Positions 2,024 to 30,763 of a stretch of 32,000 nt of DNA are shown here, piece after piece. The stretch spans positions 2,940,001-2,972,000 of the forward strand of contig CP178758.1 in NCBI GenBank assembly GCA_047651235.1, given 5' to 3'. The notes beneath the pieces are model-generated. The model did not search any database and was not told the DNA's origin. It worked only from the letters and a program-made list of their open reading frames with translations. The DNA is from Candidatus Electrothrix yaqonensis. GTDB lineage: Bacteria > Desulfobacterota > Desulfobulbia > Desulfobulbales > Desulfobulbaceae. A program made the translations under genes and the position numbers. Each line of letters starts with the position of its first letter. Positions within the stretch are counted from its first letter, which is position 1.

Positions 2024-2893
2024 TTATTTCCTGCCTTTCCCGATGGCTTCTATTTCCTCCACAGTCAGCCCTGTCTTCAGCGCGATTGTGGGAGTATCCA
2101 GCACATCAATCAGATTTGTTGCTATCTGGAGCGCCTTCTGTTTTTCCCCTTTCCGTATGCCGCAATAATAGGAGGAATGCAGCATACTCGCCTGATAATG
2201 CAGATCTTCCTGATACCGTTCGTATGCAAGCCGTTCCTGCTCGGAGAGTTTCATAATATCAAGTACCTGCTTGGCCTTTCTCAGTCCTCTGGCCTGAAAA
2301 TCCTCTCTGATTTCCTCATGTTTCAGAAAGTAAATCCACTCATCCAGACTGTCCCTGGCAACATCGTCAAAGCGATTGACCTTGATCAGGTAATATTCAG
2401 GAAAGAGCCGGAAAAGTTCCTTCCTGTCGTACAGTTCCTGCTGTTCTTCAGAAAGCTGCAGAAGATCTTCGTAATGCAGGCCTCTGAAAGAAGTTGAGCC
2501 GTAATAGACGTAATCCTTTCCCTGACCGAGATCGAAATACAGGATACTGACCGAGATGACTTTAACGATCTCCGCATAGGGCTTCCCTTCCTGAAAATGT
2601 TCCGTTATTGTCTTTGCAGTGCCGAACAGAATGCGCTGCATATAATCCAGTTCCCGATCATACTGCACTTCAATAAGAATAATTTCATCCTCTCGGTTCC
2701 GGACCTTGAGATCGACTCGGTTGAACTTGTCACCGGGATTTTCTTTATTGCTTTCACTCTCCAGAATTTCGACAATTCGGATGTCATCTCTGAGCAGCTC
2801 GCTGAGAAAGCCTTCAAGAATTTCAAAATTGGCCTTGCTCCGCAGGAGCTTTTTCATGGCCCAGTCAAAACTGACCAGCTTTCTTTGCGCCAT
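2024..2893 (-). CDS. Rpn-family recombination-promoting nuclease / PD-(D/E)XK nuclease-family putative transposase
   Basis: 289 aa. The N-terminal pattern FDWAMKKLLR...FNRVDLKVRNREDEIILIEVQY (D...E-x-Q nuclease core) and a helical C-terminal tail are typical of the PDDEXK_2/Rpn family. GAGGGCGG SD before the ATG. Confidence 0.8.
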   Translation of the reverse strand: MAQRKLVSFDWAMKKLLRSKANFEILEGFLSELLRDDIRIVEILESESNKENPGDKFNRVDLKVRNREDEIILIEVQYDRELDYMQRILFGTAKTITEHFQEGKPYAEIVKVISVSILYFDLGQGKDYVYYGSTSFRGLHYEDLLQLSEEQQELYDRKELFRLFPEYYLIKVNRFDDVARDSLDEWIYFLKHEEIREDFQARGLRKAKQVLDIMKLSEQERLAYERYQEDLHYQASMLHSSYYCGIRKGEKQKALQIATNLIDVLDTPTIALKTGLTVEEIEAIGKGRK

Positions 2894-8661: not shown

Positions 8662-10791
8662 TCAATCCTTTTTATCATCCGGTTCGATAACCGCCGGTCC
8701 GCTCTGTAGAACAACACAGCCCATCGGCGCAACCTGAACCCGGCTTCCGATTGGTACTTGGCGGGCCGTGTCAAAATCAACAAAGTCAGTTGGAGCATTC
8801 CGGTCAGTATCAATGATTTTTCTCCAGACAATATTCTGTGCTAATGACACTGACCCGGCTTCCGGGACAATGAACTGGACAGTATGTTCATCAGAATGCC
8901 CGTTAAGCATAATAAAAAAATTAGCGTCGCTCCCGCCGCTTTTCAGAAGAAAGGACAGGGTATGGGTGTGCTCGGACCAGTCCTGCTCTCCCGGATGCAG
9001 GGCCTGCCAGATAATTTCCGGGCCAGCAGCGTGCTGTCCCGGGCCGGCAGCTTGAAAAAAATCCTTCCGTCGAAAAATTGCATGATCACGGCGCAGCCGG
9101 ATCAGTTTCCGGAAAAAGCGGACTTGACCTTTCTTTTTTTTCGCCAGCTTCCAGTCGAGCCAGTTGAGTTCATTATCCTGGCACCAGGGATTATTGTTGC
9201 CGTGCCGGGTGTGACCGAACTCATCACCGGCCACCAGCATGGGCACGCCCTGAGAAAGGAGGAGAATGACCGCCATAGTTTTGATCCGGCGTCGCCGCAG
9301 TCGCTGAATACAGCGGTCACCCGTGGGCCCTTCCGCGCCGGAATTCCAGCTCAGATTGTTGTTTTCCCCGTCCTGGTTGTCTTCCCCGTTGGCCAGATTG
9401 TGTTTCCCGTTATAACTCATCAGATCAAACAGAGTAAATCCGTCGTGACTGGTGATGAAATTGACGGAATTCCACGGCTTGCGGCCGTGCTGCTCATACA
9501 GGTCCGAACTGCCGGCAATCCGGGTCGCCAAGGCGGAAACCATGCCCGGTGTGCCGTTCATGAACATGCGGACATCGTCCCGGAATCGACCGTTCCATTC
9601 TGCCCAGCGGGGATGATGCGAAAAATGGCCGACTTGGTACAGTCCGGCAGCATCCCAGGCTTCAGCAATGATTTTCGTCTTCGCCAGCACAGGGTCTTCC
9701 GCGATCCGCTCCACCACCGGCGGATTGCTCAGGACATTGCCCTCCTGATCTCTGGTCAGGATGGAGGCAATATCAAACCGGAATCCGTCCACATGCATCT
9801 CCGTGACCCACCAGCGCAGGGAATGCAGGATCAGACTGCGGACAATAGGATGATTGCAGTTGCAGGTATTGCCGCAGCCGGAAAAATTAAGATATTCCTT
9901 GGTTGCTGGATCCAGCAGATAATAGATAGGATTGTCGATGCCGCGCAACGAGGTGGTTCTGCCGCCCCAACCGCCCTCTGCCGTATGATTAAAGACCATG
10001 TCCAGGATAACCTCGATACCGGCCCGGTGCAGGGCCTTGACCATATCCCGGAATTCCCGCAGCGGATGGCCGCTGTCTGAAGAATAGGCAGCCTTGGGGG
10101 CAAAAAAGGAGAGTGGACTGTAGCCCCAGTAATTCTTCAGCTGTTCACCAGTTTCTGGGTTGCGGAACGGGCAGTCGGTTTCATCAAACTCGGTGACCGG
10201 CATGAGCTCGATAGCGGTTATTCCCAGCTCTTTGAGATAGGGTATCTTTTCCGTAATCCCCCGATATGTTCCGGGAAAGCTGCATTTTGATGAAGCATGG
10301 CGGGTAAAGCCGCGGACATGCAGCTCATAAATAATGGTATCCTGCAGAGGAACGTTCAACGGCCGGTCACCTTCCCAGTCATAAGCATCCAGCGGTATCA
10401 GGCCGCAGGTCTGCCTGCTGATACCAGAGCGATCCTCTCCCCAGCGCGGCGAACGGACTTCTTTGGCATACGGGTCCAGTATGATCAGAGTATCATCATA
10501 GGCAAGGCCGCCGGCGTGCCGTCCTTTAAGGCCGGACAGTCTGTAGCCGTACCGGAGGATGTGGTGAGGCGGCAGCCCGTTGACCAGGATATGCCAGACA
10601 TCTCCAGTTTTGTTGCTTTTCGGGTCCAATTCAATTTCAAATTTATCTGCATCGCAGTCCTCCTTCACCCCCAGGACCAAGGATACCTTTTCAGCATGAC
10701 GGGAAAAAAGAGCAAAATTAATACCTGTCGGGGTGACGGTTGCGCCGAACGGCTGAGGAGAACCGGAAAATGTAGGGAAATTGATTTTCAT
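8662..10791 (-). CDS. glgX: Glycogen debranching enzyme GlgX (GH13 isoamylase-type)
   Basis: 709 aa. GH13 conserved regions VILDMVFNHT, DGFRFDIAS, IAEAWD and FITSHDGFTL, plus an N-terminal CBM48-like PFGATVTPTGINFALFS. Confidence 0.92.
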   Translation of the reverse strand: MKINFPTFSGSPQPFGATVTPTGINFALFSRHAEKVSLVLGVKEDCDADKFEIELDPKSNKTGDVWHILVNGLPPHHILRYGYRLSGLKGRHAGGLAYDDTLIILDPYAKEVRSPRWGEDRSGISRQTCGLIPLDAYDWEGDRPLNVPLQDTIIYELHVRGFTRHASSKCSFPGTYRGITEKIPYLKELGITAIELMPVTEFDETDCPFRNPETGEQLKNYWGYSPLSFFAPKAAYSSDSGHPLREFRDMVKALHRAGIEVILDMVFNHTAEGGWGGRTTSLRGIDNPIYYLLDPATKEYLNFSGCGNTCNCNHPIVRSLILHSLRWWVTEMHVDGFRFDIASILTRDQEGNVLSNPPVVERIAEDPVLAKTKIIAEAWDAAGLYQVGHFSHHPRWAEWNGRFRDDVRMFMNGTPGMVSALATRIAGSSDLYEQHGRKPWNSVNFITSHDGFTLFDLMSYNGKHNLANGEDNQDGENNNLSWNSGAEGPTGDRCIQRLRRRRIKTMAVILLLSQGVPMLVAGDEFGHTRHGNNNPWCQDNELNWLDWKLAKKKKGQVRFFRKLIRLRRDHAIFRRKDFFQAAGPGQHAAGPEIIWQALHPGEQDWSEHTHTLSFLLKSGGSDANFFIMLNGHSDEHTVQFIVPEAGSVSLAQNIVWRKIIDTDRNAPTDFVDFDTARQVPIGSRVQVAPMGCVVLQSGPAVIEPDDKKD

Positions 10792-18595: not shown

Positions 18596-19333
18596 TCACT
18601 TTACTCCGACATAGATCGACACAATTCCGAAGGTGAGCGTCTTTCTTTCCACATGAACAAAGCCTGCTTCCTGCATCATAAAAAGCAGTTCTTCGGGTTC
18701 ATAAAACGAGGCAATGGAACGGGCAAGATATTCATACGCCTTTCTGCTGCTGGCGCAGAGACTGGCAATCCTGGGCAACATGTAGTTCAGGTAGCAGTTG
18801 TAGAGCGGCCTGACCACGGGATTGGTGGGCCGGGACAGTTCAAGGATCAGCAGTCTGCCGCCCGGACGTAATATCCTGTGCATCTCGCGCAGTCCTTTGC
18901 GGGTATCGGCAAGATTGCGCACCCCGAATGCAACTGTGCAGCCGCAGAAGGTCTCTGAACGCGCCGGGATCTCTTCTCCGTCGCCGCAGACCGGAAAAAT
19001 CCTCGGCCTGCAGTGGTTGTCCGGCAGTTTTTTCATGCCGGTCCGCAGCATGTTTTCACAGAAATCCATAGATACCACCTGCCGTTTTTTTGCCTGCCGG
19101 GCAAGCTCTACAGACAGGGGCATGGTTCCGGCGCAGAGATCCAGGATCGGCCCTTCAGGAAAATCACGGAGCAGACGGGTCGTGCGCCAGCGCCAGCAGC
19201 GGTCCACCAGCAGAGAAAGCAGCGAATTCAGCAGGTCGTACTTATGGCTGATCGAGGAAAAAATTTCCCGCACGTATTCTTTCTTCTCTTCAAGAGGGAT
19301 CATTATCTGTTCCGGTCGGATATTAACGGTCAA
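18596..19333 (-). CDS. ubiE: Demethylmenaquinone / ubiquinone C-methyltransferase UbiE/MenG
   Basis: 245 aa. VREIFSSISHKYDLLNSLLS...RCWR and the SAM motif ILDLCAGT. TTG start 10 nt after AAGGAGG, with an alternative ATG at 19303. Confidence 0.9.
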   Translation of the reverse strand: MTVNIRPEQIMIPLEEKKEYVREIFSSISHKYDLLNSLLSLLVDRCWRWRTTRLLRDFPEGPILDLCAGTMPLSVELARQAKKRQVVSMDFCENMLRTGMKKLPDNHCRPRIFPVCGDGEEIPARSETFCGCTVAFGVRNLADTRKGLREMHRILRPGGRLLILELSRPTNPVVRPLYNCYLNYMLPRIASLCASSRKAYEYLARSIASFYEPEELLFMMQEAGFVHVERKTLTFGIVSIYVGVK

Positions 19334-19365
19334 CGCTGTCGAGCCTCCTTGCGGGATTTACGAGA

Positions 19366-20202
19366 TTACTGCATGATTTTCAGCGGCAGGGCTTTGCTGT
19401 CTGCTTTGCCGTGCGCCAGCAGCCGGGTAAAGAACTCTTCCAGAGCCTGCTGCTTGCGCGGGTCAAGATCGTATTCCATAGCTTGGAGATAACAGAGGCA
19501 GGCATCTTTGTCCATAGGAATACGCCGGGCCGCCTGTCTGCTGATCGCCGGTAGCCGGGCCAGCCCCTGATCGCGGCAGGTCAGCAGTGCCTGATGGATT
19601 TCCCGCGCTGCTGCTGGTTCTGCCTGAAGAAAATCCTCCCGCACGGCACAGACGGCAAAGACAAAGGGCAGGTCGGTATGCCGGTGCCAGAATTCTCCTA
19701 AATCCAGCTGCACCGGATACTGTTTTTCCATAGCCAGCCGCAGGGCATCGTCACCGATCGCCAGTACTGCTTCAGGCCGCTCTCCGTGGTCATGGTCCTG
19801 CGGCTGCGGTGCAGAAATATCTCCCCGCAGATACTGCGGCCTGACAGCAAAAAAATCTTCCAGAATAATCTGCAGCAGCCGGACCGAAGTATCGGACTGG
19901 CCGGTCAGCAGCACCGGCCTGCTGTCCAGCTGCTCCGGCGGCACCGAGGAAAAAAGGAACACACTGCCCACCGGGCCGGTGGCGGCAATGGAAAGATCCG
20001 CCATAATGCGGTACTGTTGCGGTCGAACGGCATATTCAATCGAGGAAACAAAGCCGAGGTCAAGTTCACCCGCTGCCAGCAGCCGGTTCAGCTCCACAGG
20101 CGGTGCCTCGGTCACCAGCCAGTCCGGTCGATGCACCTGCTCCTTCCATACCTCGTAGATAGGTGCGGTGTTGATATAGTTGACCATGCCGATGCGGGCC
20201 AT
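19366..20202 (-). CDS. mqnA: Chorismate dehydratase MqnA (futalosine pathway)
   Basis: 278 aa. VitK2-biosynthesis/PBP-like fold with N-terminal RIGMVNYINTAPIY. It lacks the SPCPND motif of MqnD. Confidence 0.8.
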   Translation of the reverse strand: MARIGMVNYINTAPIYEVWKEQVHRPDWLVTEAPPVELNRLLAAGELDLGFVSSIEYAVRPQQYRIMADLSIAATGPVGSVFLFSSVPPEQLDSRPVLLTGQSDTSVRLLQIILEDFFAVRPQYLRGDISAPQPQDHDHGERPEAVLAIGDDALRLAMEKQYPVQLDLGEFWHRHTDLPFVFAVCAVREDFLQAEPAAAREIHQALLTCRDQGLARLPAISRQAARRIPMDKDACLCYLQAMEYDLDPRKQQALEEFFTRLLAHGKADSKALPLKIMQ

Positions 20203-20223
20203 CTTTCTTTCTCTCTGCTGATT

Positions 20224-21453
20224 TTAAAGCAGATGCACATCCCCGCCGCCCTGCTGCACCGAATGCACTAAATACTCCTGCACCGCTGAGAGGTTGCGGA
20301 TGGCTTCAGGCAGCTCTGCAGCTATTATTGCCGCCTCTTTTCCCGCCTCCAGCGAACCGAGCACCCTGTCCAGGCCGAGGGCCTGCGCCCCGCCCAGCGT
20401 TGCCATGCGCAGGATATCCGCCGGAGCAATGCCCGGATGATCCTCGGCCAGCAGGCGCATTTCCCGCCACAGGGAAAGTTCCGGATTGCTGGTCAGGCTG
20501 TCCGTGCCCAGGGCAGGCAGGATACCGTTACGCAGATACTTCTCTGCCGGGGCCTTGCCCACGCCCAGATAGCGGTTGCTGCTCGGACAAAGGCAGACCC
20601 TAGCGCCGTTCTCAGCCAGCAGATCAATCTCCTGCTCTGTAACTTGAATACAATGTACACAAAGTGTCCTTCTGTCAAGCAGGCTGTGGCGATGCAGATA
20701 AGTTACTGAACCTTCGCTGCCTCTGCCGAGCGGTTGAAAGGAATCATTCCAGAAACCCCGTTGTTCGAGAAAGTCCCGTATCTCCCCGGTCCCTTGATTA
20801 ATCAATGTATTTTCCGCTGCAGGCTCAGCAACATGAATGGGAAAAATATGACCCAACCGCCCTGCCCTGCTTTTCAACGCCCGCAGCAGATCAGGATGGG
20901 TGGAATACGGGGCATGGCCGGTGCAGGGCTGCACTCCTTCTTTTGCCAGCCCTTTCAGAGCCATTGTAACTTCATCTGCCCGCAGACCGAGGTATTCCTT
21001 AAAGCAGAGCAGCCTACCGGTAAAAGCAGAGGAAAAATTTCTGGTCAGGCCGCTGTTGGAGATGTCCGCTATCGCCACCACGCCCTGTCGCTGCTGCTCA
21101 GTCAGGGCAGTACGGGCTGCTGCTGCTGCGATAGTCTCGGTATCATCGGCAACTTTGGCCCGTTCTGCCAGCATCTGCGCAATCCAGCCGGTAAAGGTCG
21201 GCGGCGCGGGTTGGCGGGAAAGATATGCAAGATGGGAGAGTTCCAAGTGGGTGTGGGCGTTGATCAGGCCGGGCAGGAGCACGGCATCCGGATGATCAAG
21301 TACGGCTGCGTCCGGATGACGGCGAAGAACCTCGCTGAACCGGCTGACCGCGCATATTTTTCCTGCCCGAAGCGCTACCCCGCCATCCTGAATCGGCGGA
21401 CGGCTGATGGGCAGGACCCAAGGCGCACGATGGACAGCAAGCGGAGAATCCAC
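20224..21453 (-). CDS. Amidohydrolase-superfamily deaminase (candidate aminodeoxyfutalosine deaminase)
   Basis: 409 aa. Metal motif LINAHTHLE and an MtaD/guanine-deaminase-like layout. The GTG start abuts the stop of the upstream radical SAM gene (TAAGTG). The specific function is inferred from its position inside the mqn operon. Confidence 0.75.
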   Translation of the reverse strand: MDSPLAVHRAPWVLPISRPPIQDGGVALRAGKICAVSRFSEVLRRHPDAAVLDHPDAVLLPGLINAHTHLELSHLAYLSRQPAPPTFTGWIAQMLAERAKVADDTETIAAAAARTALTEQQRQGVVAIADISNSGLTRNFSSAFTGRLLCFKEYLGLRADEVTMALKGLAKEGVQPCTGHAPYSTHPDLLRALKSRAGRLGHIFPIHVAEPAAENTLINQGTGEIRDFLEQRGFWNDSFQPLGRGSEGSVTYLHRHSLLDRRTLCVHCIQVTEQEIDLLAENGARVCLCPSSNRYLGVGKAPAEKYLRNGILPALGTDSLTSNPELSLWREMRLLAEDHPGIAPADILRMATLGGAQALGLDRVLGSLEAGKEAAIIAAELPEAIRNLSAVQEYLVHSVQQGGGDVHLL

Positions 21454-22530
21454 TTATTCTGCCGAAGTGTAATCCATCAGCCGTTGCTCCGGTGTGAATC
21501 CGGCATCCGTGACCAGACGGCGGATTTCCTGCTCAGACAGGCGAAAATGCACCCCGGCAGCAGCCACCACATTTTCCTCAATCATGGTGGAGCCAAAATC
21601 ATTGGCCCCGAAAAACAGGGAGAGCTGGGCAATCTTCGGCCCCTGCGTCACCCAGGACGCCTGAATGTTCGCGAAGTTATCGAGAAAGATACGGCTCAGG
21701 GCCAGCATGCGCAGATAGGTAACGGCTGAGGTCTTTTCCCCGTTCACGGTTTCCGCCAAGGCGGTGTTGTCCGGCTGAAAGGGCCAGGGAATAAAAGCGG
21801 TAAAACCGCCGGTCCGGTCCTGGAGGTCGCGCAGCCGTTGGAGATGCTCCAGCCGTTCCTCCCAGGTTTCCACATGACCGAACATCATGGTCGCGGTGGT
21901 GCGCATTCCCAAAGTATGCGCCTGTTCCATGACCGAAATCCACTTATCAGCGGAACACTTGCGCGGAGCAAGCTGCTGCCGCACCCGGTCAGAAAGGATC
22001 TCTGCTCCGCCGCCTGGGATGGAATCCAGGCCCGCAATCATGAGCCGCTCCAGCACCGTTCTGATGGACAAGCCGGAAAGTTCGGCAAAATGACAGATTT
22101 CCGGCGGGGAAAAACCGTGGATGTGGATACCGGTGGCCTTCATGAAACGAAGCATATCTTCGTAAAACGCCAGCGGCAGGTCAGGATGCAGGCCGCCCTG
22201 GAGGAGGATCTGGGTGCCGCCGAGTTCCTGGGTTTCGCGGATTTTCCGGAGCAGCTCCTCCCTGCGTAGCACACTGCCCTGCGGGTCTTCCGGGGCCTTA
22301 AAAAAAGCGCAGAACTTACAGGCCGAGATGCAGATATCAGTGTAGTTGATATTGCGGTCAATGACGTAGGTGACCTTGGGTTCCGGATGCAGCCGTTTAC
22401 GCACGGCGTCGGCCATAAAGCTGAGCCGGTAGAGGTCGGCCTTTTCAGCGAGAAAAAGGAATTCTTCACCGGTGATCCGGTCTCCGGCTGTAATTTTATC
22501 TGTTATTTCCTGCATAGATTTATTGTGCAT
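21454..22530 (-). CDS. mqnC: Radical SAM menaquinone biosynthesis enzyme, MqnC-like (MqnE not excluded)
   Basis: 358 aa. CISACKFCAF (CX3CX2C), IDRNINYTDIC, IHGFSPPEI and IPGGGAEIL. The HGFSPPEI segment looks more MqnC-like than MqnE-like from memory. Confidence 0.8.
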   Translation of the reverse strand: MHNKSMQEITDKITAGDRITGEEFLFLAEKADLYRLSFMADAVRKRLHPEPKVTYVIDRNINYTDICISACKFCAFFKAPEDPQGSVLRREELLRKIRETQELGGTQILLQGGLHPDLPLAFYEDMLRFMKATGIHIHGFSPPEICHFAELSGLSIRTVLERLMIAGLDSIPGGGAEILSDRVRQQLAPRKCSADKWISVMEQAHTLGMRTTATMMFGHVETWEERLEHLQRLRDLQDRTGGFTAFIPWPFQPDNTALAETVNGEKTSAVTYLRMLALSRIFLDNFANIQASWVTQGPKIAQLSLFFGANDFGSTMIEENVVAAAGVHFRLSEQEIRRLVTDAGFTPEQRLMDYTSAE

Positions 22531-22788: not shown

Positions 22789-23345
22789 TTAAAGCCGTTC
22801 TGACGGAACAGCGGCATAATTCCACTTCGGCAGAAACCCGTCGAATTGAATTTTCATATTTTCTTTAAAACCGTCAGCCGTTTTGCGGCCTGTCTCGAAG
22901 AGGAATTCAGATTTTCCATGTGTCGTCCACCAGTTCCGAATACAGGCGCACCCGAATTCGGAGGTGTCACCGCTTGTCCCTAATGTGATACAACCGATAT
23001 TACTGTATATATCATACAGTCCATAGGCGAACCCGCCGTGTGTTTTTTCAGCACTGCGAAAAATGCGTCATCAAGGCCGACGGCGGTCGAGAGGACGGAT
23101 TTACGTCCCCCGCCCGGTTTGCGGATTCGTTCCTCTTTTTCAGGCAGAGGCTGTTTCAGCTCCTCAATCCCGCGACGGACCCGGTCAGAATCACACCGCA
23201 ACATGTCGCATATATACGTTATGCCGCCGTATCCGAACTTTTCCGCTTCAACTGCGGCGTATCGACGGCGGTCTTTTTCAGACAGGCTGCCGTAAAAATT
23301 ACGCATTCGCGTTTCTATCTCAGGAGAATATGTTTTTATCTTCAT
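22789..23345 (-). pseudogene. ISAzo13-family transposase remnant with internal deletion and frameshift
   Basis: The N-terminal 105 aa or so (RRRYAAVEAEKFGYGGITYI...RIRKPGGGRKSVL...HTAGSPMD) match the ISAzo13 HTH region and then stop at 22980. A different frame (22959..22789) encodes a C-terminal tail ...GRKTADGFKENMKIQFDGFLPKWNYAAVPSERL*, like the family's conserved xEWNYTIxP end. The DDE core of about 300 aa is missing. Confidence 0.75.
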
Positions 23346-23471
23346 AACCGGATGAGAATAAACGCAACTATGAAATTGTCAATGACCTGTCAGCAAGTTC
23401 CGTTGTTATTAAATTTTCATTCATAGCCCGGCTGAAAATAAACACTGTCGGCTCCGCTTCCGAGGCAGGCA

Positions 23472-23711
23472 TTGGCCGAAAGATTTTCCGAGAGCTATTT
23501 TGGCTTGATTCTCGATGACCTGCGCTGTCTCCCCGACCGAACAACGTGGTTTTCTCTGCTTCGTGAACTGCTGCTTCCTTCAGGCGATGAATTGGCAGCA
23601 AAATACGGGCAGGAGGAGCTGCGCCCGTTAGAGAAAAAAATACGTCTGCCTCTGCTTTATGCCCGCTATCTGCTGGTCGGACTGCTGAAACGGGTTGTCC
23701 GCCTGCAGTGA
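23472..23711 (+). CDS. Orphan 79-aa ORF, possibly a gene fragment
   Basis: GC-rich ORF with a TTG start and no SD, lying between the IS remnant and the AT-rich block. No family recognised. Confidence 0.2.
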   Translation: MAERFSESYFGLILDDLRCLPDRTTWFSLLRELLLPSGDELAAKYGQEELRPLEKKIRLPLLYARYLLVGLLKRVVRLQ

Positions 23712-23988
23712 CAGGGAGAGCCGGACGCCCGGGCTGCAGCCCGCCTTTCCCCGTTTCCCGCCTTTACTACTGTTGAGTGCTTCTGATCCAGTCTTATTTT
23801 TTCAAGCTGATTGATCTGTTGGATTGTTTTGTGAAAGGAATTTCCTGGTTCGAGGCAAAGACTTCAATCATCCGTAATGCTGTGTAACTCCTAGCGGGGA
23901 AGGAAAAGCAGGGTCTGGAAATCTTCAGATGCTTTCAGGGAATAAATCTGATTATTATTCTTATAATTTTAATATTATCAAATAAATA

Positions 23989-24053
23989 TTGACTTCGTGC
24001 GTCATTAGGTTTAACGTCGGCAAAATTAGGTTGAAGCGGATAACTGAAGTTAT
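23989..24053 (+). promoter_or_regulatory. Candidate promoter (TTGACT-17-TAACGT) plus a 14-bp palindrome ATAACTGAAGTTAT
   Basis: -35-like at 23989-23994 and a weak -10 at 24012-24017. A perfect palindrome at 24040-24053 lies between them and the AAGGAG SD of the NTF2-like gene. The region is very AT-rich. Confidence 0.3.
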
Positions 24054-24096
24054 CTTATCCAGCCGTATAAAAAAAACTATACTAAAGGAGATCAAG

Positions 24097-24540
24097 ATGA
24101 ATGCTACACAATTAGCTGCTGTAACCACTGATCCTGCCAGCAAAGCTGTCCTTGAGTTTCTGTCGGTTCTTGAAACCAAAAAAGTAGATAACTTATTAAG
24201 CATATGGGACGAAAATGGTATTTTTGAACTGCCTTTTTCTCATAAAGGAATACCAAGTTTATATCACCCAAAATTTGAAGGACGGCAATGTATCTATGAA
24301 CTCTTCCAAGCATTGCTCCCTGGTGAGAGTTTTAAATTTAAGGAGATTGCATTGTATCCAATGATCAATCAAGAATATGTTTTCATTGAATTCATAGGTG
24401 ATATTACACAACTGGACCGAGGTATAAAATATACGAATCGGTATTGTGCATTAGCGCATACTCGAAAAGGAAAAATTTTATTATTCAGGGAATATTTCCA
24501 TGCAATTATACGACAAAACTTTGAAGCAAGTGGCTTTTGA
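24097..24540 (+). CDS. NTF2-like / SnoaL-like fold protein
   Basis: 147 aa starting at an ATG 6 nt after AAGGAG (the track ORF begins upstream at 23989). Size and pattern (FLSVLETKKVDNLLSIWDENGIFELPF ... YVFIEF ... KILLFREYF) fit the SnoaL/ketosteroid-isomerase-like cone fold. Confidence 0.65.
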   Translation: MNATQLAAVTTDPASKAVLEFLSVLETKKVDNLLSIWDENGIFELPFSHKGIPSLYHPKFEGRQCIYELFQALLPGESFKFKEIALYPMINQEYVFIEFIGDITQLDRGIKYTNRYCALAHTRKGKILLFREYFHAIIRQNFEASGF

Positions 24541-24634
24541 CATTGCAGGTGATATGGATGAACGAATGAACGAATAATTTTGTCATACCTAATGAGCAGT
24601 AACTCTGTAACAGCCTCAACATAGGAAAAGAAAA

Positions 24635-25885
24635 ATGAAAGCCTGTCAATTGAAGTTGAACACACCCGTATTCGAGCGAGAAGTGGTTGATACAAAAAGA
24701 ACTAACAGTTACTGGGTTGAAGCCTTTGATATAGACGGAGACGGTAAATCTGATCTGCTTGGTTACGGATTGGGAGACTCCCAGATTTATACGTTTAGAA
24801 ATCCGACTTGGGAAAAAAGGCTCATTGCTCAGCTGAAAGGAGCTGTCGGAATGGATCATGCTGATATTAACCAGAATGGTTTGAATGATGTGGTGATCTG
24901 TTATCAGTACGGAGCAACAATGCGGGATTGTGATCCGGAAGGTGGAAAAATTGTATGGCTGGAAAACCCTGGCACCCCGGACGGAGAATGGAAGCATCAT
25001 TATATCGGCAGAGCAACGGCCATGCATCGTTTACGAGTCGGGTATTTTACGCAGACCGAAAAACTTGAGGTATTAGGGTTGCCGATCGTAGGAAAACCTG
25101 GAGACATCTATTCAGATGTACCGGTGGTGCTGTTTACGCAGCCAGATGACCTCAGCACTGCTCAGGAATGGAACAGGACGATTATCAATGACAGTTATTA
25201 CCATATCATTCATGGTGTTTCTAAAAAGAAATTTAATAAATCCAGGAATGGCTCAGAACTCGATTCAGTCATCCTGGCCTCCCAGGAAGGTATTTCATGG
25301 TTGTATTATGATCAAGAACAGCGGAATTGGAAAATCGAGCTGCTTGGCCAAGGTGAACAAGAAGAATTTAAACTGACAGGATACCGGGGAAGTGGCAACT
25401 TGGATGCAGGCAAAATAGGCGACGATGACTTCGCTTATATTCCAACGGTGGAACCGTTTCATGGGAACAGAATTGCTGTTTATGTAAAAAGAACAGCGTC
25501 CCTTTTAAACTCAGTACGCTGGAAGCGCTTTGTCCTGGATACGTTTAAAGATCCAGATGATCATGGTGAGGGGCCTGGTCATCATGTAGTTTGTGCAGAC
25601 TTTGACGGAGACGGTGATGACGAATTCCTAGTTGCACTGCGAGGACCTAAACCTTGGCAGGGAGTCTACTGCTACAAGGCTATTGATCTGCAGAACGGAG
25701 TTTTTGTTAAATGGCATATCACGCAGGATTCTGCTGCAAGGATTGCCTTGGCCGATTTCAATGGAGACGGTCGTCTTGACTTTGCCACTATGGGGTATTG
25801 GGTCCCGGGATATTACCAGACTGAACAGCCTGAGATCGTCGTTTTTAGAAATGCTTTTGCTGAACCGGGTAGAAAGAATGGATGA
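24635..25885 (+). CDS. FG-GAP/VCBS-repeat beta-propeller protein (candidate aldos-2-ulose dehydratase-like propeller)
   Basis: 416 aa with no signal peptide. Repeated Ca-binding-type loops FDIDGDGKSDLL, ADINQNGLNDVV, ADFDGDGDDEFL and ADFNGDGRLDFA, spaced about 55-60 aa apart, are consistent with a 7-bladed propeller. Confidence 0.85.
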   Translation: MKACQLKLNTPVFEREVVDTKRTNSYWVEAFDIDGDGKSDLLGYGLGDSQIYTFRNPTWEKRLIAQLKGAVGMDHADINQNGLNDVVICYQYGATMRDCDPEGGKIVWLENPGTPDGEWKHHYIGRATAMHRLRVGYFTQTEKLEVLGLPIVGKPGDIYSDVPVVLFTQPDDLSTAQEWNRTIINDSYYHIIHGVSKKKFNKSRNGSELDSVILASQEGISWLYYDQEQRNWKIELLGQGEQEEFKLTGYRGSGNLDAGKIGDDDFAYIPTVEPFHGNRIAVYVKRTASLLNSVRWKRFVLDTFKDPDDHGEGPGHHVVCADFDGDGDDEFLVALRGPKPWQGVYCYKAIDLQNGVFVKWHITQDSAARIALADFNGDGRLDFATMGYWVPGYYQTEQPEIVVFRNAFAEPGRKNG

Positions 25886-25937
25886 TCCTGCAACGAATTT
25901 GGCAGATCAAGGTACATACTCAGGAGGATAAATCAAG

Positions 25938-26657
25938 ATGACTGCTGCATACAACAAGGTAACATCCGTCAACTTTGCAAGCGAACATATAACAGCATAC
26001 GCTGTCAGCAACGTGCGGGATTTTCACATCAATAAACGCTCTATTGTTGTGAATATGGGATCGGAACTGATCTATTTTGATGAAGAGCCCAAGAAGGGAC
26101 TGTTACCCAGAAAATCAACGATCCTACAGAACAAAAGGATAGAATCGGCTGTGTTGGTCATGGTGCTTGAGGTCCACAGCAGGATCAATCTCGGCAATGT
26201 GATTCTCGGCAAAGAGTGGGACAGCGCGGAAAATTTATTCGGGGATGCCCTGAAAGGTGTGCCTCTATGGAAATCTCCTCAGGTTGAAATAGGAAAAATT
26301 ACACTCAATCCTTTTGCTGCGTTGGGCCAAGAACAGCAGGGAGATGCTGCGGTTACTTTCAACATCAAGGTCAACATCTGGTTTACTACTGAGTGTGCCA
26401 ACTGCACTATTCATAATCAGCATGATTTTATCGAATTTCATACCCAGATTGCCGGAACCGGTCGTATGCAGAAATTTTCCGACGATACGATTGACACCCT
26501 TTATGAAGATGTGATCCTAGGTGAAGGACAAAGCCACGATATATTCTGTACCGCCTTGGATGACGGTCGCAGCTTCAAGTATCCTTGGCACCAGTACTAT
26601 TCAGATACAGACTGTATCTGGATGGCTACGGAGTTACATCCCCTGCCTGCTCTTTAA
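25938..26657 (+). CDS. Cupin-like metalloprotein, unknown function
   Basis: 239 aa. AGGAGG SD. The C-terminal half has a cupin-type ligand pattern H159-N-Q-H162-D-F-I-E166-F-H168...G-T-G (nt 26412-26441), followed by GEGQSHDIF and YPWHQYY. Confidence 0.6.
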   Translation: MTAAYNKVTSVNFASEHITAYAVSNVRDFHINKRSIVVNMGSELIYFDEEPKKGLLPRKSTILQNKRIESAVLVMVLEVHSRINLGNVILGKEWDSAENLFGDALKGVPLWKSPQVEIGKITLNPFAALGQEQQGDAAVTFNIKVNIWFTTECANCTIHNQHDFIEFHTQIAGTGRMQKFSDDTIDTLYEDVILGEGQSHDIFCTALDDGRSFKYPWHQYYSDTDCIWMATELHPLPAL

Positions 26658-26761
26658 ACGGGCTGGTCGAACATGTTGATGTATGTCGCTATGAGATTAC
26701 CCATTCATGGCGGCATTACCGATCCGGCAGTTAGATGAATACGGGCAAATCTTGCGAGATA

Positions 26762-26839
26762 ATAACTAACTGAAATAAAAAATAAGTTATCAATACATAC
26801 TATAGCTCAAGTCAAATGACTTGACACCTAGGATATAAT
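26762..26839 (+). promoter_or_regulatory. AT-rich intergenic region with two inverted repeats and a TATAAT box
   Basis: ATAACT-N17-AGTTAT at 26762-26790. An 18-bp perfect palindrome TCAAGTCA-AA-TGACTTGA at 26807-26824. TATAAT at 26834-26839, only 3 nt before the ATG at 26843. Confidence 0.3.
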
Positions 26840-26842
26840 GGC

Positions 26843-27607
26843 ATGGAAAATTTTATGGCGATAGCCGTTTCTTCCTGGAAGGGAACATTAAGATTAATAA
26901 TAATTTTTACATGCTTCCTGCTGCTGCTGGCAGCTGTTGTATTCATTTTAGCGAACTTAGTTCATAAAACAGGTGCAGCAGTTTCTATATCAGGAACAAC
27001 AATTAGTATTGGGTCGAAAGAAAGGTTAGATTCTGCATTGGTAAATCCGATAAACTGGACAGATACAAAGATTGATATAAAGAAAGGAGATTGTTTTATT
27101 CTTGATGCAACAGGAAGTGTTAATGTTGCTCTGGGGCATATGAATCAGGCATTAGATACTTTTGCCGAGATTTCTTCCAGTAAAAAAGACATGAAAATTG
27201 AACTATTTACTGAAAAGGAAATAAAAAGATCTTTATTTCCTTTTCCTTGGAACGGTCCAGAAGGACTTAATCTGAAAGACGTAAATGATCAGAATGTGAT
27301 AGACCGAATTAAAACGTCACGTAACAGATTTATTCATCCCAATGGAGAGATAGGGCAACTATTAGCTTTCATCTCAACAAGTGGCAGCTGCCCAGATATA
27401 TATTCTCAAGAGGAACCGAAAGGAATGATTCATCCCTATTTCGGGCCAAGCACTACTCATACGGCCAAGGTGTCTGGAAGATTATGTTTCGTTATTAATG
27501 ACGTAACAACAGAAGAGGTAAAATATAAGAAATTGATCTGGCAAGATAATACTGGTTTTTTTTCAATAAAAATCCATATTAAGTCGAACAAAACCAGTTT
27601 ACTTTGA
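26843..27607 (+). CDS. Membrane-anchored protein with a PA-IL (LecA)-like lectin-fold domain
   Basis: 254 aa. One N-terminal TM helix (LRLIIIFTCFLLLLAAVVFILANLV). The pattern KKGDCFILDATGSVNVA ... IGQLLAFIS ... GRLCFVINDV...WQDNTGFFSIKIHI parallels LecA GDVITIVAAG ... GALVMKIG ... ITLIYNDV..YGNNSGSFSVNI. The start could instead be the ATG at 26855. Confidence 0.55.
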   Translation: MENFMAIAVSSWKGTLRLIIIFTCFLLLLAAVVFILANLVHKTGAAVSISGTTISIGSKERLDSALVNPINWTDTKIDIKKGDCFILDATGSVNVALGHMNQALDTFAEISSSKKDMKIELFTEKEIKRSLFPFPWNGPEGLNLKDVNDQNVIDRIKTSRNRFIHPNGEIGQLLAFISTSGSCPDIYSQEEPKGMIHPYFGPSTTHTAKVSGRLCFVINDVTTEEVKYKKLIWQDNTGFFSIKIHIKSNKTSLL

Positions 27608-27623
27608 ATTTCAGACAACCTAT

Positions 27624-27640
27624 CTGATTTGTTACGCAAC
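27624..27640. repeat. Fourth copy of the CTGAT..GTTACGCA motif
   Basis: CTGATTTGTTACGCAAC compared with CTGATGTTACGCAGC at 22594. It is in direct orientation, 58 nt upstream of the GH31 start. Confidence 0.5.
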
Positions 27641-27646
27641 AACCGA

Positions 27647-27664
27647 AAAAGGCAATAGCCTTTT
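27647..27664 (+). terminator. Weak hairpin with T-run after the lectin-like gene
   Basis: AAAAGGC-aata-GCCTTTT followed by ATTTAATAA. The stem has only 3 G:C pairs, so it is at most a leaky terminator. Confidence 0.3.
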
Positions 27665-27697
27665 ATTTAATAACCCAGCTTATGGAGGAAAAAAGCC

Positions 27698-30600
27698 GTG
27701 TCAACAATCATTTCGCCAGCAGATGCCGTTTTATCGGATCAGATTTTTTCTGAGCAGGAAGCGTATAAATTCCTTAAGGTTGAGCAGTATTTTTCCAGGT
27801 ACAAGGAATGGGACACCCTAGATACCGTCGCCTCCCATTCCTTTGATGCAGCAGCAAAATCTCTGGCCCTGAATTTTACCGAAAGTGACGACAAATCATG
27901 CAGCATGTGCATTCATTTCCTACAGAAGGACACGTTCCGGGTTCGTTTCAACCCAGGCAAAATAGCGGATGACTATACTGCTGAGAATACCCGTTCGGTC
28001 ATTCGCAATACGGTTGACGATCTGCAGAGACTGCTGGAACAGAAAGAACAATTCCAGATTGATGCAGCTGAAGGCAGCGGAAAGATCGAACTGACCACAA
28101 AGGGTGCTGACAATCAGCCTGTAATGCAGGTCGTGGTCACCCATGCTCCCTTTGCGATTCAGGTCTTCTGCTTTTTCCAAGGCGAAGCCTTCCAGGTCTG
28201 GCAGACAGCAGAAACGCCGATTTACTATACACCCAACGGCCGGGAAGATTATGCCGTGATTCAGGCTGTCACAAAGCCTGCCAGTGCAAAGTACATCGGC
28301 TTCGGCGAACAGGGAGGCCAGTCCCTGAGCAAGAATACCGCGCAGGTGAATTATTTCAATTTTGACAATATGCGGTATCGGCAGGTGTATAATCACGGTC
28401 CCTTGGATGTCCGGGAACCTCTGTATCACTCAGACCCGTTCTTTATGGAGTTCAACGGTGTACCTACACAGCAGAGCGTCAACGGTATATTTATTGATAA
28501 TCCCGGTCAGGTGCTCATGGATATCGGATACCTCAATTCCGGCCGCTATATGTTCGGCACCCGTTTCGGCGATCTGGACTATTATTTTTTCGCGGGTAAA
28601 AAGCCTGTCGATGTAGTCGATAGCTTTACGTCCATTGTGGGCAGATCCCGTCTGAAGCCGCGTTATTGTCTGGGCTATCATCAGGGCTGCTACGGCTATA
28701 ACAGGCGGGACATTCTGGAATGGGCTGTGCGAAGATACCGGGAATACCAGATTCCGCTGGATGGCCTGCATGTGGATGTGGATGTTCAGCATAAGTACCA
28801 GACCTTCACGATTGATGAGCAGAAATTTCCCAATCCGTATGAGATGTTTCATAACCTGAAAGAACAGGGAATAAAATGCAGCACCAACATCACGCCGGTC
28901 ATCAGCAGAGAAGATCCGAGATATTCAACGTATACTCAGGCCTTGGCCAACGATTATTTTGTTCGCGACAAGCGCTATGATCCAGCCAATCCTGAAAGCA
29001 AGTATTATCAGCTCTACGGCGGCGGCGGTGAATATTGCCCGAATAACGGTTGGGTTGACGGGTTCAACAGCGGTGAGCCGTATATTGGCGAGGTTTATTA
29101 CGGAAAGGATGGAGCCGGTCAGGATTTAGGCACATCGGGCCATTATGCCGACCTGGGCAGAAAAGAGGTGCGGCACTGGTGGGGCACCCAATACCAGTAC
29201 CTCTTTAATATGGGGTTGGAAATGGTCTGGCAGGACATGACCACCCCGGCTATCCGGGATAACCGGGGCGATATGAAAGGCTTTCCTTTCCGTTTACTGG
29301 TGACCGATGATTTTTATGGGGAAGCATCTGCCAAGCTGACTCCTGCCATCAAGGTGTGGAACCTATATTCTTATAATCTTCATAAGGCCACCTACCACGG
29401 ACTCAACAACCTGGAGGGCAGGGATAACAAACGCAATTTTATCATCGGGCGGGGCAGCTTTACCGGTTCGCACCGCTATGCCGGTCTGTGGACAGGGGAT
29501 AATTCTTCGGACTGGGATTTTTTGAAAATGAATGTATCCCAGGCCCTGTCCCTGGGAATGTGCGGCGTTGTGATCAACGGCCAGGATATCGGCGGATTTG
29601 AGGCATCAAATGCGGACGGCGGAAAATGGGCCAGCCCGGAACTTCTGATCCGCTGGACTGCTGCCGGTGCCTTTCTGCCGTGGTTCAGGAACCATTATGT
29701 CCGCAAGGGACGCAAAGAATTCCAGGAACCGTTTATGTATGAGGAATGGTTCCAGCAATATCGAGGCGGCCAGCTGCCTGAACCGCAGGATCTGTACCGT
29801 AATGTCCTGCCGATCTGCAAACATTACATTGAGCTGCGCTACCGTCTGCTCCAGCTCTTTTACGATGCAATGTTTGAAAATACCCTGACCGGTCGGCCTA
29901 TCTGTCGTCCCCTGTTCCTCAACGATCCTGATGACAAGTCGCTCTATAATGATAAGGAGTCCTTCTTGGATAACGAATTCTTTGTCGGCAAAGATCTCCT
30001 GATCGCTCCTGTTCTCGAACCCCAAGTTCAGAATAACAATCAGGGAAAAAGGGATGTGTATCTGCCATCAGGCAGTAACTGGTATTGTTTTATGGATAAT
30101 ACCATGCCGCTCGGACCTGCTGTTGACGGAGGCACTACGATAAGGGATTTTGATGCGAATATCAATACCAACGATAACCATATTCACTTCATTGTTCCGG
30201 CGTATGTACGTGCAGGGGCTGTTATCCCGACCATTGAGGTTGAACAGTACGTGGGCCAGCGCAACAAGGAAGGGCAGCCCAATTCGATTACGCTCAATAT
30301 TTATCCCGGTGCGGACGGAGAATACACCATGTATCTGGATGATGGAGAAAGCCGTTCCTCAGCTGATACGTCCGCCCATCCGGCTGAATTGGGCGGTGAT
30401 CCGCAGGCCAAGGGGGAGTATCGCAAGACAAAAATTACCCATACCGGCAACGGCAAGAAAACTCGACAAATTACAGTGGAACGTATCCATGACGGATACA
30501 CGCCCAAATTTGAAGACTATTTCTTTGTCGCTATTCTGCATGATCCCTCTGAAACAAAAGGGGCTTCAGGCTGTTTAAATAAGGTCAGCATAGACGGCCA

Positions 30601-30763
30601 GCAGATCGAATGCATCTCAGGAGGTACATCGGAACAGCGGAGCAACAGTTTATGGGCATCTCCCGGAAACGCATGGTATTACAACGAGGATATCAAGATT
30701 AGCTTCGTCAAGGTATCTGATAACAGTTCGAAAATTGTGATTAATGCGGAGTATGCTGAGTAA
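27698..30763 (+). CDS. Glycoside hydrolase family 31 enzyme with a lyase-type nucleophile motif (candidate alpha-1,4-glucan lyase)
   Basis: 1021 aa. GTG start 9 nt after GGAGG. No signal peptide. GH31 motifs MVWQDMTTPA (Asp513), RYAGLWTGDNSSDW (Asp601), GQDIGGF and RWTAAGAFLPWFRNHY. The family call is firm. Lyase activity is a hypothesis. Confidence 0.9.
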   Translation: MSTIISPADAVLSDQIFSEQEAYKFLKVEQYFSRYKEWDTLDTVASHSFDAAAKSLALNFTESDDKSCSMCIHFLQKDTFRVRFNPGKIADDYTAENTRSVIRNTVDDLQRLLEQKEQFQIDAAEGSGKIELTTKGADNQPVMQVVVTHAPFAIQVFCFFQGEAFQVWQTAETPIYYTPNGREDYAVIQAVTKPASAKYIGFGEQGGQSLSKNTAQVNYFNFDNMRYRQVYNHGPLDVREPLYHSDPFFMEFNGVPTQQSVNGIFIDNPGQVLMDIGYLNSGRYMFGTRFGDLDYYFFAGKKPVDVVDSFTSIVGRSRLKPRYCLGYHQGCYGYNRRDILEWAVRRYREYQIPLDGLHVDVDVQHKYQTFTIDEQKFPNPYEMFHNLKEQGIKCSTNITPVISREDPRYSTYTQALANDYFVRDKRYDPANPESKYYQLYGGGGEYCPNNGWVDGFNSGEPYIGEVYYGKDGAGQDLGTSGHYADLGRKEVRHWWGTQYQYLFNMGLEMVWQDMTTPAIRDNRGDMKGFPFRLLVTDDFYGEASAKLTPAIKVWNLYSYNLHKATYHGLNNLEGRDNKRNFIIGRGSFTGSHRYAGLWTGDNSSDWDFLKMNVSQALSLGMCGVVINGQDIGGFEASNADGGKWASPELLIRWTAAGAFLPWFRNHYVRKGRKEFQEPFMYEEWFQQYRGGQLPEPQDLYRNVLPICKHYIELRYRLLQLFYDAMFENTLTGRPICRPLFLNDPDDKSLYNDKESFLDNEFFVGKDLLIAPVLEPQVQNNNQGKRDVYLPSGSNWYCFMDNTMPLGPAVDGGTTIRDFDANINTNDNHIHFIVPAYVRAGAVIPTIEVEQYVGQRNKEGQPNSITLNIYPGADGEYTMYLDDGESRSSADTSAHPAELGGDPQAKGEYRKTKITHTGNGKKTRQITVERIHDGYTPKFEDYFFVAILHDPSETKGASGCLNKVSIDGQQIECISGGTSEQRSNSLWASPGNAWYYNEDIKISFVKVSDNSSKIVINAEYAE

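Follow-up and report, generated by a model that had tools for sequence, protein, structure and literature searches.

In a window of 32,000 nucleotides from Candidatus Electrothrix yaqonensis (contig CP178758.1, positions 2,940,001 to 2,972,000 of the forward strand), we identified a gene encoding a protein of glycoside hydrolase family 31 (GH31) which is probably a cytoplasmic alpha-1,4-glucan lyase of the EC 4.2.2.13 type. From the comparisons of sequence, fold and gene linkage described below we put the probability at about 80% that the protein is such a lyase, orthologous to the fungal lyases and in one clade with the red-algal lyase, and that the genes upstream of it convert the anhydrofructose formed. 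By every sequence criterion that could be tested, it is a prokaryotic member of the GH31 lyase clade. A recent review lists no sources of alpha-1,4-glucan lyases other than fungi and red algae and assigns all known ones to GH31 (PMC12441222), and papers on a bacterial 'anhydrofructose pathway' cite reductases and no lyase gene (e.g., PMC5870813). Our literature search gave no gene-level link of a glucan lyase to cyanobacteria or other bacteria and no earlier account of the motif or of an anhydrofructose gene cluster, with the limit that an earlier grouping with lyases in a GH31 subfamily may exist. New here are the probable prokaryotic lyase, its conserved and split partner genes, which resemble aldos-2-ulose dehydratase (AUDH), an enzyme of fungi, and an unnamed bicupin family.

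Active site and relatives of the GH31 protein

The translation of the open reading frame (ORF; Table 1) contains ...NMGLEMVWQDMTTPAIRD... and ...YAGLWTGDNSSDWDFLKM.... The original prediction, made from the letters of the window, had read the motif WQDMTTP here, with Asp513 as nucleophile, Thr516 in place of the hydrolase Glu at position +3 from the nucleophile, and Asp601 as acid/base. The codons agree exactly (GAC at 29234-29236 for Asp513, ACC ACC at 29240-29245 for Thr515-Thr516, and GAT at 29498-29500 for Asp601). All four GH31 domains were detected by Pfam, namely Gal_mutarotas_2, Glyco_hydro_31_2nd (E 3e-77), Glyco_hydro_31_3rd and DUF5110. The N-terminus, MSTIISPADAVLSDQIFSEQEAYKF, as read from the translation, is without a hydrophobic signal-like stretch, as had been predicted. 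An NCBI protein from Candidatus Electrothrix sp. YB6, labelled only 'TIM-barrel domain-containing protein', has the same sequence as the 1021-aa product.

The active site was compared with the lyase of the red alga Gracilariopsis lemaneiformis (PDB 2x2h) and with 24 hydrolase-type GH31 representatives. In a PDB sequence search, 2x2h aligns as ...LDFVWQDMTVPAMMPH against ...LEMVWQDMTTPAIRD of the window protein. The 2x2h chain was rebuilt from the printed alignments (residues 12-877), and its index plus 11 gives the published numbers D553 (nucleophile), V556, D665 (acid) and N459 (in QTNITC); the algal motif WQDMTVP with D553 and V556, as given in the original prediction, matches this alignment and numbering. 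Asp513 and Asp601 align with D553 and D665, respectively, and Asp513, Asp601, Arg585, Asp630 and His666 are all conserved in the alignment. The hydrolase-type representatives mostly read DMNEP, the WxDMNE state that had been expected of hydrolases: 22 of the 24 have Asn at +2, Glu at +3 is likewise seen in 22, and DMT(T/V) was found in 0 of the 24. Eight alignment columns split lyase-type from hydrolase-type sequences, and the window protein has the lyase state at 8 of 8. Given as window/algal residue with the hydrolase residue in brackets, these columns are F220/Y236 (W), G330/G371 (S), G333/G374 (S), Y347/Y399 (F), Q364/Q416 (M), N397/N459 (I), T399/T461 (D) and T515/T555 (N). Beyond the original prediction, the comparison adds a second lyase marker, Asn397 in the segment STNITP; a cloned fungal lyase with Thr at +3 and the AUDH-like neighbours, which also go beyond that prediction, are described below. 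Asn397 is the equivalent of Asn459 and Thr399 that of Thr461 of the algal lyase; where lyases have TNIT, most hydrolase-type representatives have (I/V)(I/V)DP, and the Asn459 position is Ile in 20 of the 24. Asn459 assists Asp553 as the base of the elimination, and hydrolases have Ile at this position (review, PMC12441222).

WQDMTTP is unchanged in all 120 of the 120 closest database homologues (at least 59% identity), and 76 of the 79 genome loci, each representing a species, carry it. Since it is invariant across the closest homologues and found in nearly all species loci, the motif is not a product of chance. The segment LPWFRNHY is present in 118 of the 120 homologues and in 2x2h. At this place the hydrolase-type representatives have xP(F/Y)xR(N/A/S/G)H without the final Tyr, the sole exception being P0357 (TPFFRNHY).

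The alpha-1,4-glucan lyase of the fungus Morchella vulgaris (CAB52201.1/Q9UVZ1; P0486), which was retrieved by a profile search built from fungal homologues, shows 41% identity to the window protein over ~1056 aligned positions (BLASTP, 721 bits); among the database representatives, fungal homologues are found at 44-50% identity. It has the same WQDMTTPAI and KCSTNITPVIS letters as the window protein (matching segments LEFVWQDMTTPAI, KCSTNITPVIS, LWTGDNAS and LPWLRNHY), and the acid segment LWTGDN(A/S)S and LPW(L/F)RNHY are common to both. The two proteins are collinear over their full length and both are without a signal peptide. The window protein is 49 residues shorter and lacks several fungal insertions (13% gaps), and its size is like that of the eukaryotic lyases, as had been noted (1021 aa compared to 1070 aa in M. 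vulgaris and 1027 residues in the 2x2h chain). Unlike the M. vulgaris lyase, it is prokaryotic, and its gene forms an operon-like cassette together with split AUDH-like genes. Because the M. vulgaris lyase has WQDMTTPAI, Thr at +3 is the fungal lyase state itself and not an approximation of the algal Val, so that the replacement of Glu by Thr is indeed one that a glucan lyase shows. According to a passage in PMC3713064 that cites Bojsen 1999, the gene of this lyase was cloned and heterologously expressed. Anhydrofructose is the precursor of microthecin in M. vulgaris, according to a passage in PMC2974679 citing Deffieux 1987, and fungi and red algae convert anhydrofructose to microthecin and ascopyrones (PMC2974679).

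The algal lyase 2x2h shares with the window protein WQDMT-x-P, TNIT (Asn459), Gln416, LPWFRNHY and an insertion before LPWFRNHY. It differs in its overall sequence (~30% identity), in having Val for Thr at +3, and in a long insertion after the nucleophile segment which is not present in the window protein. GH31 alpha-glucosidases such as Sulfolobus MalA, Ro-alphaG1 (3nuk) and MGAM have the family, the domain order and the two catalytic Asp in common with the window protein, and their first step, formation of a covalent glucosyl-enzyme, is expected to be the same. They differ in carrying WxDMNEP, (I/V)(I/V)DP, Met in DIDYM and Trp at the position of residue 220; the window protein has the lyase residue at each, with DMTTP and TNITP in place of the two hydrolase segments.

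In phylogenetic trees built by neighbour-joining on a fast MAFFT alignment, the WQDM-type sequences, 2x2h among them, all fall into a single clade apart from the DMNEP-type hydrolases (199 of 200 bootstraps), and within it a subclade of bacterial and fungal DMTTP-type sequences was recovered in 200 of 200. The same division is seen in a search of 1.84 billion database representatives: above ~280 bits, nearly all matches with a readable motif are W-Q-D-M-(T/M)-x-P, with a few multidomain or hydrolase-type proteins as exceptions, and below that score WxDMNEP is found. Most WQDM-type representatives also carry L-P-W-(F/Y)-R-N-H-Y. Of the PDB entries, 2x2h matches the AlphaFold (AF2) model of the window protein (pLDDT 92.7) best (E 5e-64, TM 0.78 both ways).

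Some members of the wider family deserve separate mention. Two loci of Pseudomonas sp. MWU13 (L080, L081) and the representatives P0257-P0269 and P0287 form a sister group in the lyase-type clade with WQDMT(C/D)P and TNIT; the two Pseudomonas loci are without AUDH-like and bicupin partners and have a gene for a 540-aa protein without family assignment directly upstream. Two hydrolase-type representatives show mixed states, GTNITP with WNDMNSP (P0286) and GTIITP with WNDMNEP (P0291), and may be traces of the route by which active sites evolved between the hydrolase and the lyase type. A fungal-type lyase homologue (P0404) is annotated in the fern Adiantum nelumboides, which could be due to contamination or horizontal transfer.

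Genes linked to the GH31 gene

Four genes lie upstream of the GH31 gene on the same strand, separated by gaps of 53-186 nt, and encode a SnoaL_2-like protein, a beta-propeller protein, a bicupin and a membrane protein (Table 1). Fungal AUDH forms microthecin from 1,5-anhydrofructose by way of ascopyrone M. The enzyme of Phanerochaete chrysosporium (4a7k/4a7z) is a single chain of 900 residues, which Claesson and colleagues reportedly described in 2012 as a propeller and a bicupin with a lectin domain at the C-terminus, whereas in the window propeller and bicupin are encoded by separate genes. The propeller protein matches residues 19-432 of 4a7k (E 2.3e-84). The bicupin encoded by the next gene has no Pfam, NCBIfam or PDB sequence match. 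Its AF2 model (pLDDT 96) has AUDH 4a7z as its top PDB fold match (TMq 0.64, E 5e-9), compared to ~0.3 for other bicupins; the title of the 4a7z entry is that of AUDH complexed with the reaction intermediate ascopyrone M. A cupin-like pattern, H159-x2-H162-x3-E166-x-H168, is conserved in the bicupin. No lectin domain was found in the propeller or bicupin proteins, and no lectin-like gene among the conserved neighbours.

Table 1. Positions in the window of the GH31 gene, its active-site segments and the neighbouring genes of the cassette.
Feature	Position	Strand	Basis
GH31 lyase-type protein, 1021 aa, predicted cytoplasmic alpha-1,4-glucan lyase	27698..30763	+	GTG start, ORF translation, GH31 domains
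S-T-N397-I-T399-P segment, in place of hydrolase (I/V)(I/V)-D-P	28880..28897	+	alignment, discriminating-column analysis
Nucleophile signature V-W-Q-D513-M-T515-T516-P	29225..29248	+	same letters in M. vulgaris lyase; algal WQDMTVP
Acid/base segment L-W-T-G-D601-N-S-S-D-W	29486..29515	+	aligns with WVGD(665)N of 2x2h
L-P-W-F-R-N-H666-Y segment, common to lyases	29675..29698	+	homologue and PDB alignments
SnoaL_2 (NTF2-like) protein	24097..24540	+	Pfam PF12680; probable ATG 24097, mechanical ORF start TTG 23989
AUDH beta-propeller (dehydratase) domain homologue, 416 aa	24635..25885	+	Pfam PF22301, E 2.3e-60
Conserved bicupin, 239 aa	25938..26657	+	commonest GH31 partner; fold match to AUDH
254-aa protein with N-terminal membrane helix, between bicupin and GH31 genes	26843..27607	+	no credible family match

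Conservation of the linkage was examined in a scan of one genome per species, which gave 79 loci; linkage was counted where 1.5 kb or more of upstream sequence was available (69 loci). Most of the 79 are from cyanobacteria, among them Nostoc, Trichodesmium erythraeum IMS101, Microcystis, Microcoleus, Oscillatoria and Prochloron, and the others are from Bacillota, Actinomycetota, Chloroflexota, Bacteroidota, Acidobacteriota, Treponema, Propionivibrio and two Methanosarcina-type archaea. The bicupin gene is a direct neighbour of the GH31 gene in 50 of these 69, the propeller gene in 20. The linkage is kept despite changes in gene order, as GH31-bicupin in Clostridium and GH31-propeller-bicupin in another genome. 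Electrothrix scaldis has the bicupin-GH31 pair only, at another chromosomal site and with other flanking genes. When all neighbouring ORFs were clustered, SnoaL_2 proteins were the sole further conserved partner; orthologues of the window type lie between the propeller and bicupin genes in three loci (L020, L067 and L076), and this protein might be an isomerase or tautomerase of enones.

A second type of SnoaL_2 protein was seen in 11 loci (L018, L019, L025, L026, L030, L037, L038, L041, L061, L065 and L074), where its gene is located directly downstream of the GH31 gene, except in L061 (~1.7 kb upstream); the domain was assigned by Pfam in the four loci to which it was applied. N-terminal extensions are present in some of these ORFs, and in L019 the N-terminus is hydrophobic and signal-like. 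As this second type is unrelated to the first by BLAST, the cassette has apparently taken up two different NTF2-like proteins.

A fusion of the bicupin with DUF6209, 377 aa long and encoded directly upstream of the GH31 gene, is found in some cyanobacteria (L001, 8404..9537; P0148 and P0165). A bicupin homologue with 43% identity (P0212) is annotated in the sea anemone Actinia tenebrosa and could reflect contamination or horizontal transfer. The metagenome-assembled genomes of the two Methanosarcina-type archaea (L049, L051) encode full-length WQDMTTP homologues with 54-55% identity; in L051, the one archaeal locus with flanking sequence, no bicupin or propeller gene adjoins the GH31 gene.

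The 254-aa membrane protein was rejected as a conserved cassette member, with a homologue in 0 of 81 other loci, and its membership of the cassette is doubtful; it has no match in Pfam and only a negligible one in NCBIfam (16 bits, cut-off 293). Three minus-strand ORFs inside the GH31 gene (27920..28429, 28430..28852 and 29606..30025) were also discarded, their conservation elsewhere being a shadow of the GH31 frame. A promoter and terminator scan of 23.3-31 kb gave counts equal to the shuffled expectation.

Proposed pathway and alternative explanations

From the active-site signature, clade membership, fold and gene linkage we infer the following substrate, chemical steps and products. The non-reducing-end glucose of glycogen or maltodextrin would bind in subsite -1, Asp601 would protonate the leaving group and Asp513 would form the covalent glucosyl-enzyme. 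In the window protein, the hydrolase Asn (+2), Glu (+3) and the Asp of IIDP are replaced by Thr515, Thr516 and Thr399, and the hydrolase Ile by Asn397, which is predicted to hydrogen-bond with the nucleophile. Owing to these replacements, the departing Asp513 carboxylate would take H-2 in a syn-elimination, with the nucleophile as base and without attack of water, in the two-step scheme (covalent glucosyl-Asp, then syn-elimination) known for the algal enzyme. The product then released would be the enol form of 1,5-anhydro-D-fructose, which would tautomerise. The AUDH-like propeller would dehydrate anhydrofructose to ascopyrone M, and the bicupin and/or the SnoaL-like protein would isomerise the enone to pyranones of the microthecin or ascopyrone type.

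Several results speak against this assignment. Identity to the characterised lyases is only 41% (fungal) and ~30% (algal), and when PDB matches are ordered by total sequence score, some hydrolases (MGAM, Ro-alphaG1) rank above 2x2h. The +3 residue varies inside the lyase clade (T, V, C, S, D). Because of this variation the position is of limited diagnostic value by itself, and since sister groups carry Cys, Ser or Asp (WQDMTDP), loss of Glu at +3 alone is not the whole lyase signature. With respect to the neighbouring genes, the propeller lies beside the GH31 gene in only 29% of the loci, and a profile-to-PDB sequence search found no similarity of the bicupin to AUDH, so that the two are linked by fold only, at 13% identity.

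Part of this evidence would also fit an eliminase of the lyase clade that acts on another natural substrate (an alpha-glucoside or alpha-glucan linkage) or whose product has another fate downstream, an alternative that we consider unlikely. The distance to the characterised lyases leaves room for it, and the bicupin is the lone partner, without a propeller, in most loci. Because the propeller is absent beside the GH31 gene in most loci, the downstream chemistry may differ from that of fungal AUDH. The predicted cytoplasmic location and the varied storage glucans of the carrier phyla would also be compatible with another substrate, whereas the markers of the -1 subsite and the overall architecture fit alpha-1,4-glucan lyases and no neighbouring gene hints at a different substrate.

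An ordinary retaining alpha-glucosidase, in which the motif differences merely tune substrate specificity, is more improbable still. Public databases call the family 'alpha-glucosidase' or 'GH31' and the best NCBIfam match is the MalA alpha-glucosidase equivalog model (NF040948), but the score of 259.5 bits is far under its cut-off of 800. Both catalytic Asp are kept, the PDB sequence matches with the highest total score are hydrolases, and GH31 hydrolases make traces of anhydrofructose anyway (PMC12441222). Against these points, the DMNE and IIDP signatures are both exchanged for lyase states, the clade holds both lyases compared (2x2h and M. vulgaris) and no known hydrolase, and a hydrolase would leave the linkage to AUDH-like genes unexplained. 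Hardly credible is a route in which the AUDH-like genes serve the conversion of glucose via glucosone (by pyranose oxidase) to cortalcerone, with the GH31 enzyme just supplying glucose: the earliest description of fungal AUDH has it forming cortalcerone together with pyranose 2-oxidase (Koths 1992, according to a passage in PMC11650716) and Oscillatoria princeps has both a bacterial pyranose oxidase (PMC11650716) and the cassette (L056), yet no GMC oxidoreductase or pyranose oxidase was found among the conserved neighbours in 80 loci and the GH31 partner bears the lyase signature and not the hydrolase one. All three alternatives are well below the assignment as alpha-1,4-glucan lyase.

On the assignment as lyase, the active-site signature together with the adjacent AUDH homologues indicates that bacteria probably have an anhydrofructose pathway, for which genes have so far been assigned in eukaryotes only. 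The evidence leaves us evenly divided on a more extensive proposal, in which a small, horizontally mobile cassette of a GH31 lyase and the unnamed bicupin, often with an AUDH-type propeller and a SnoaL-like isomerase, would convert intracellular glycogen to enones of the ascopyrone/microthecin class, and would be common among filamentous cyanobacteria and have been handed on to cable bacteria, Bacillota, Actinomycetota, Bacteroidota, Chloroflexota and even Methanosarcina. Enones of this class are antimicrobials in fungi and red algae. To our knowledge, no sequence is known for the fungal anhydrofructose dehydratase and ascopyrone tautomerase, and the bicupin and SnoaL-like proteins may be the bacterial counterparts of these activities. 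If the clade is active, it would contain the lyase gene that has so far been missing from the bacterial anhydrofructose pathway, and hundreds of 'alpha-glucosidases' in cyanobacteria and other prokaryotes would be re-annotated. It would also offer bacterial, easily expressed sources of anhydrofructose-producing enzymes, and the bicupin and SnoaL-like families, which are unannotated, would become candidates for the downstream steps.

For the enzymology of GH31, the original prediction had drawn on a Glu-to-Val change in Sulfolobus MalA, presumably at +3, which Rozeboom and co-workers reportedly found in 2013 to shift the enzyme from hydrolysis toward lyase chemistry. The pattern seen across the clade (TNIT for IIDP, DMT-x for DMNE, Gln for Met, and T, V, C, S or D at +3) offers a broader natural test of the switch from hydrolysis to elimination than the idea of a single Glu-to-Val change.

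Origin of the cassette and its surroundings

The G+C content is 0.41-0.44 across the cassette (window positions 23000-29000) compared to 0.50-0.58 on both flanks. In the neighbour-joining tree the Electrothrix GH31 protein nests among cyanobacterial sequences. The low G+C content, this nesting and the different chromosomal site of the Electrothrix scaldis pair suggest that Electrothrix acquired the cassette through horizontal transfer.

Further genes in the window were annotated. A GlgX/isoamylase-type debranching enzyme with CBM48, alpha-amylase catalytic and isoamylase C-terminal domains is encoded ~17 kb from the lyase gene (8662..10791, minus strand). This enzyme could supply linear alpha-1,4 chains, and its presence in the window is a weak sign that glycogen-type alpha-glucans are handled by the organism. 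Directly upstream of the cassette, an opposite-strand run of genes (18596..22530, minus strand) encodes a UbiE/COQ5-type methyltransferase, a VitK2_biosynth ('Menaquinone biosynthesis') protein, an amidohydrolase and a radical-SAM protein with a CofH/MqnC C-terminal region (Pfam), and looks, by its domain content, like a cluster for futalosine-type menaquinone synthesis. A gene for a transposase of the PD-(D/E)XK nuclease family is located at 2024..2893 (minus strand).

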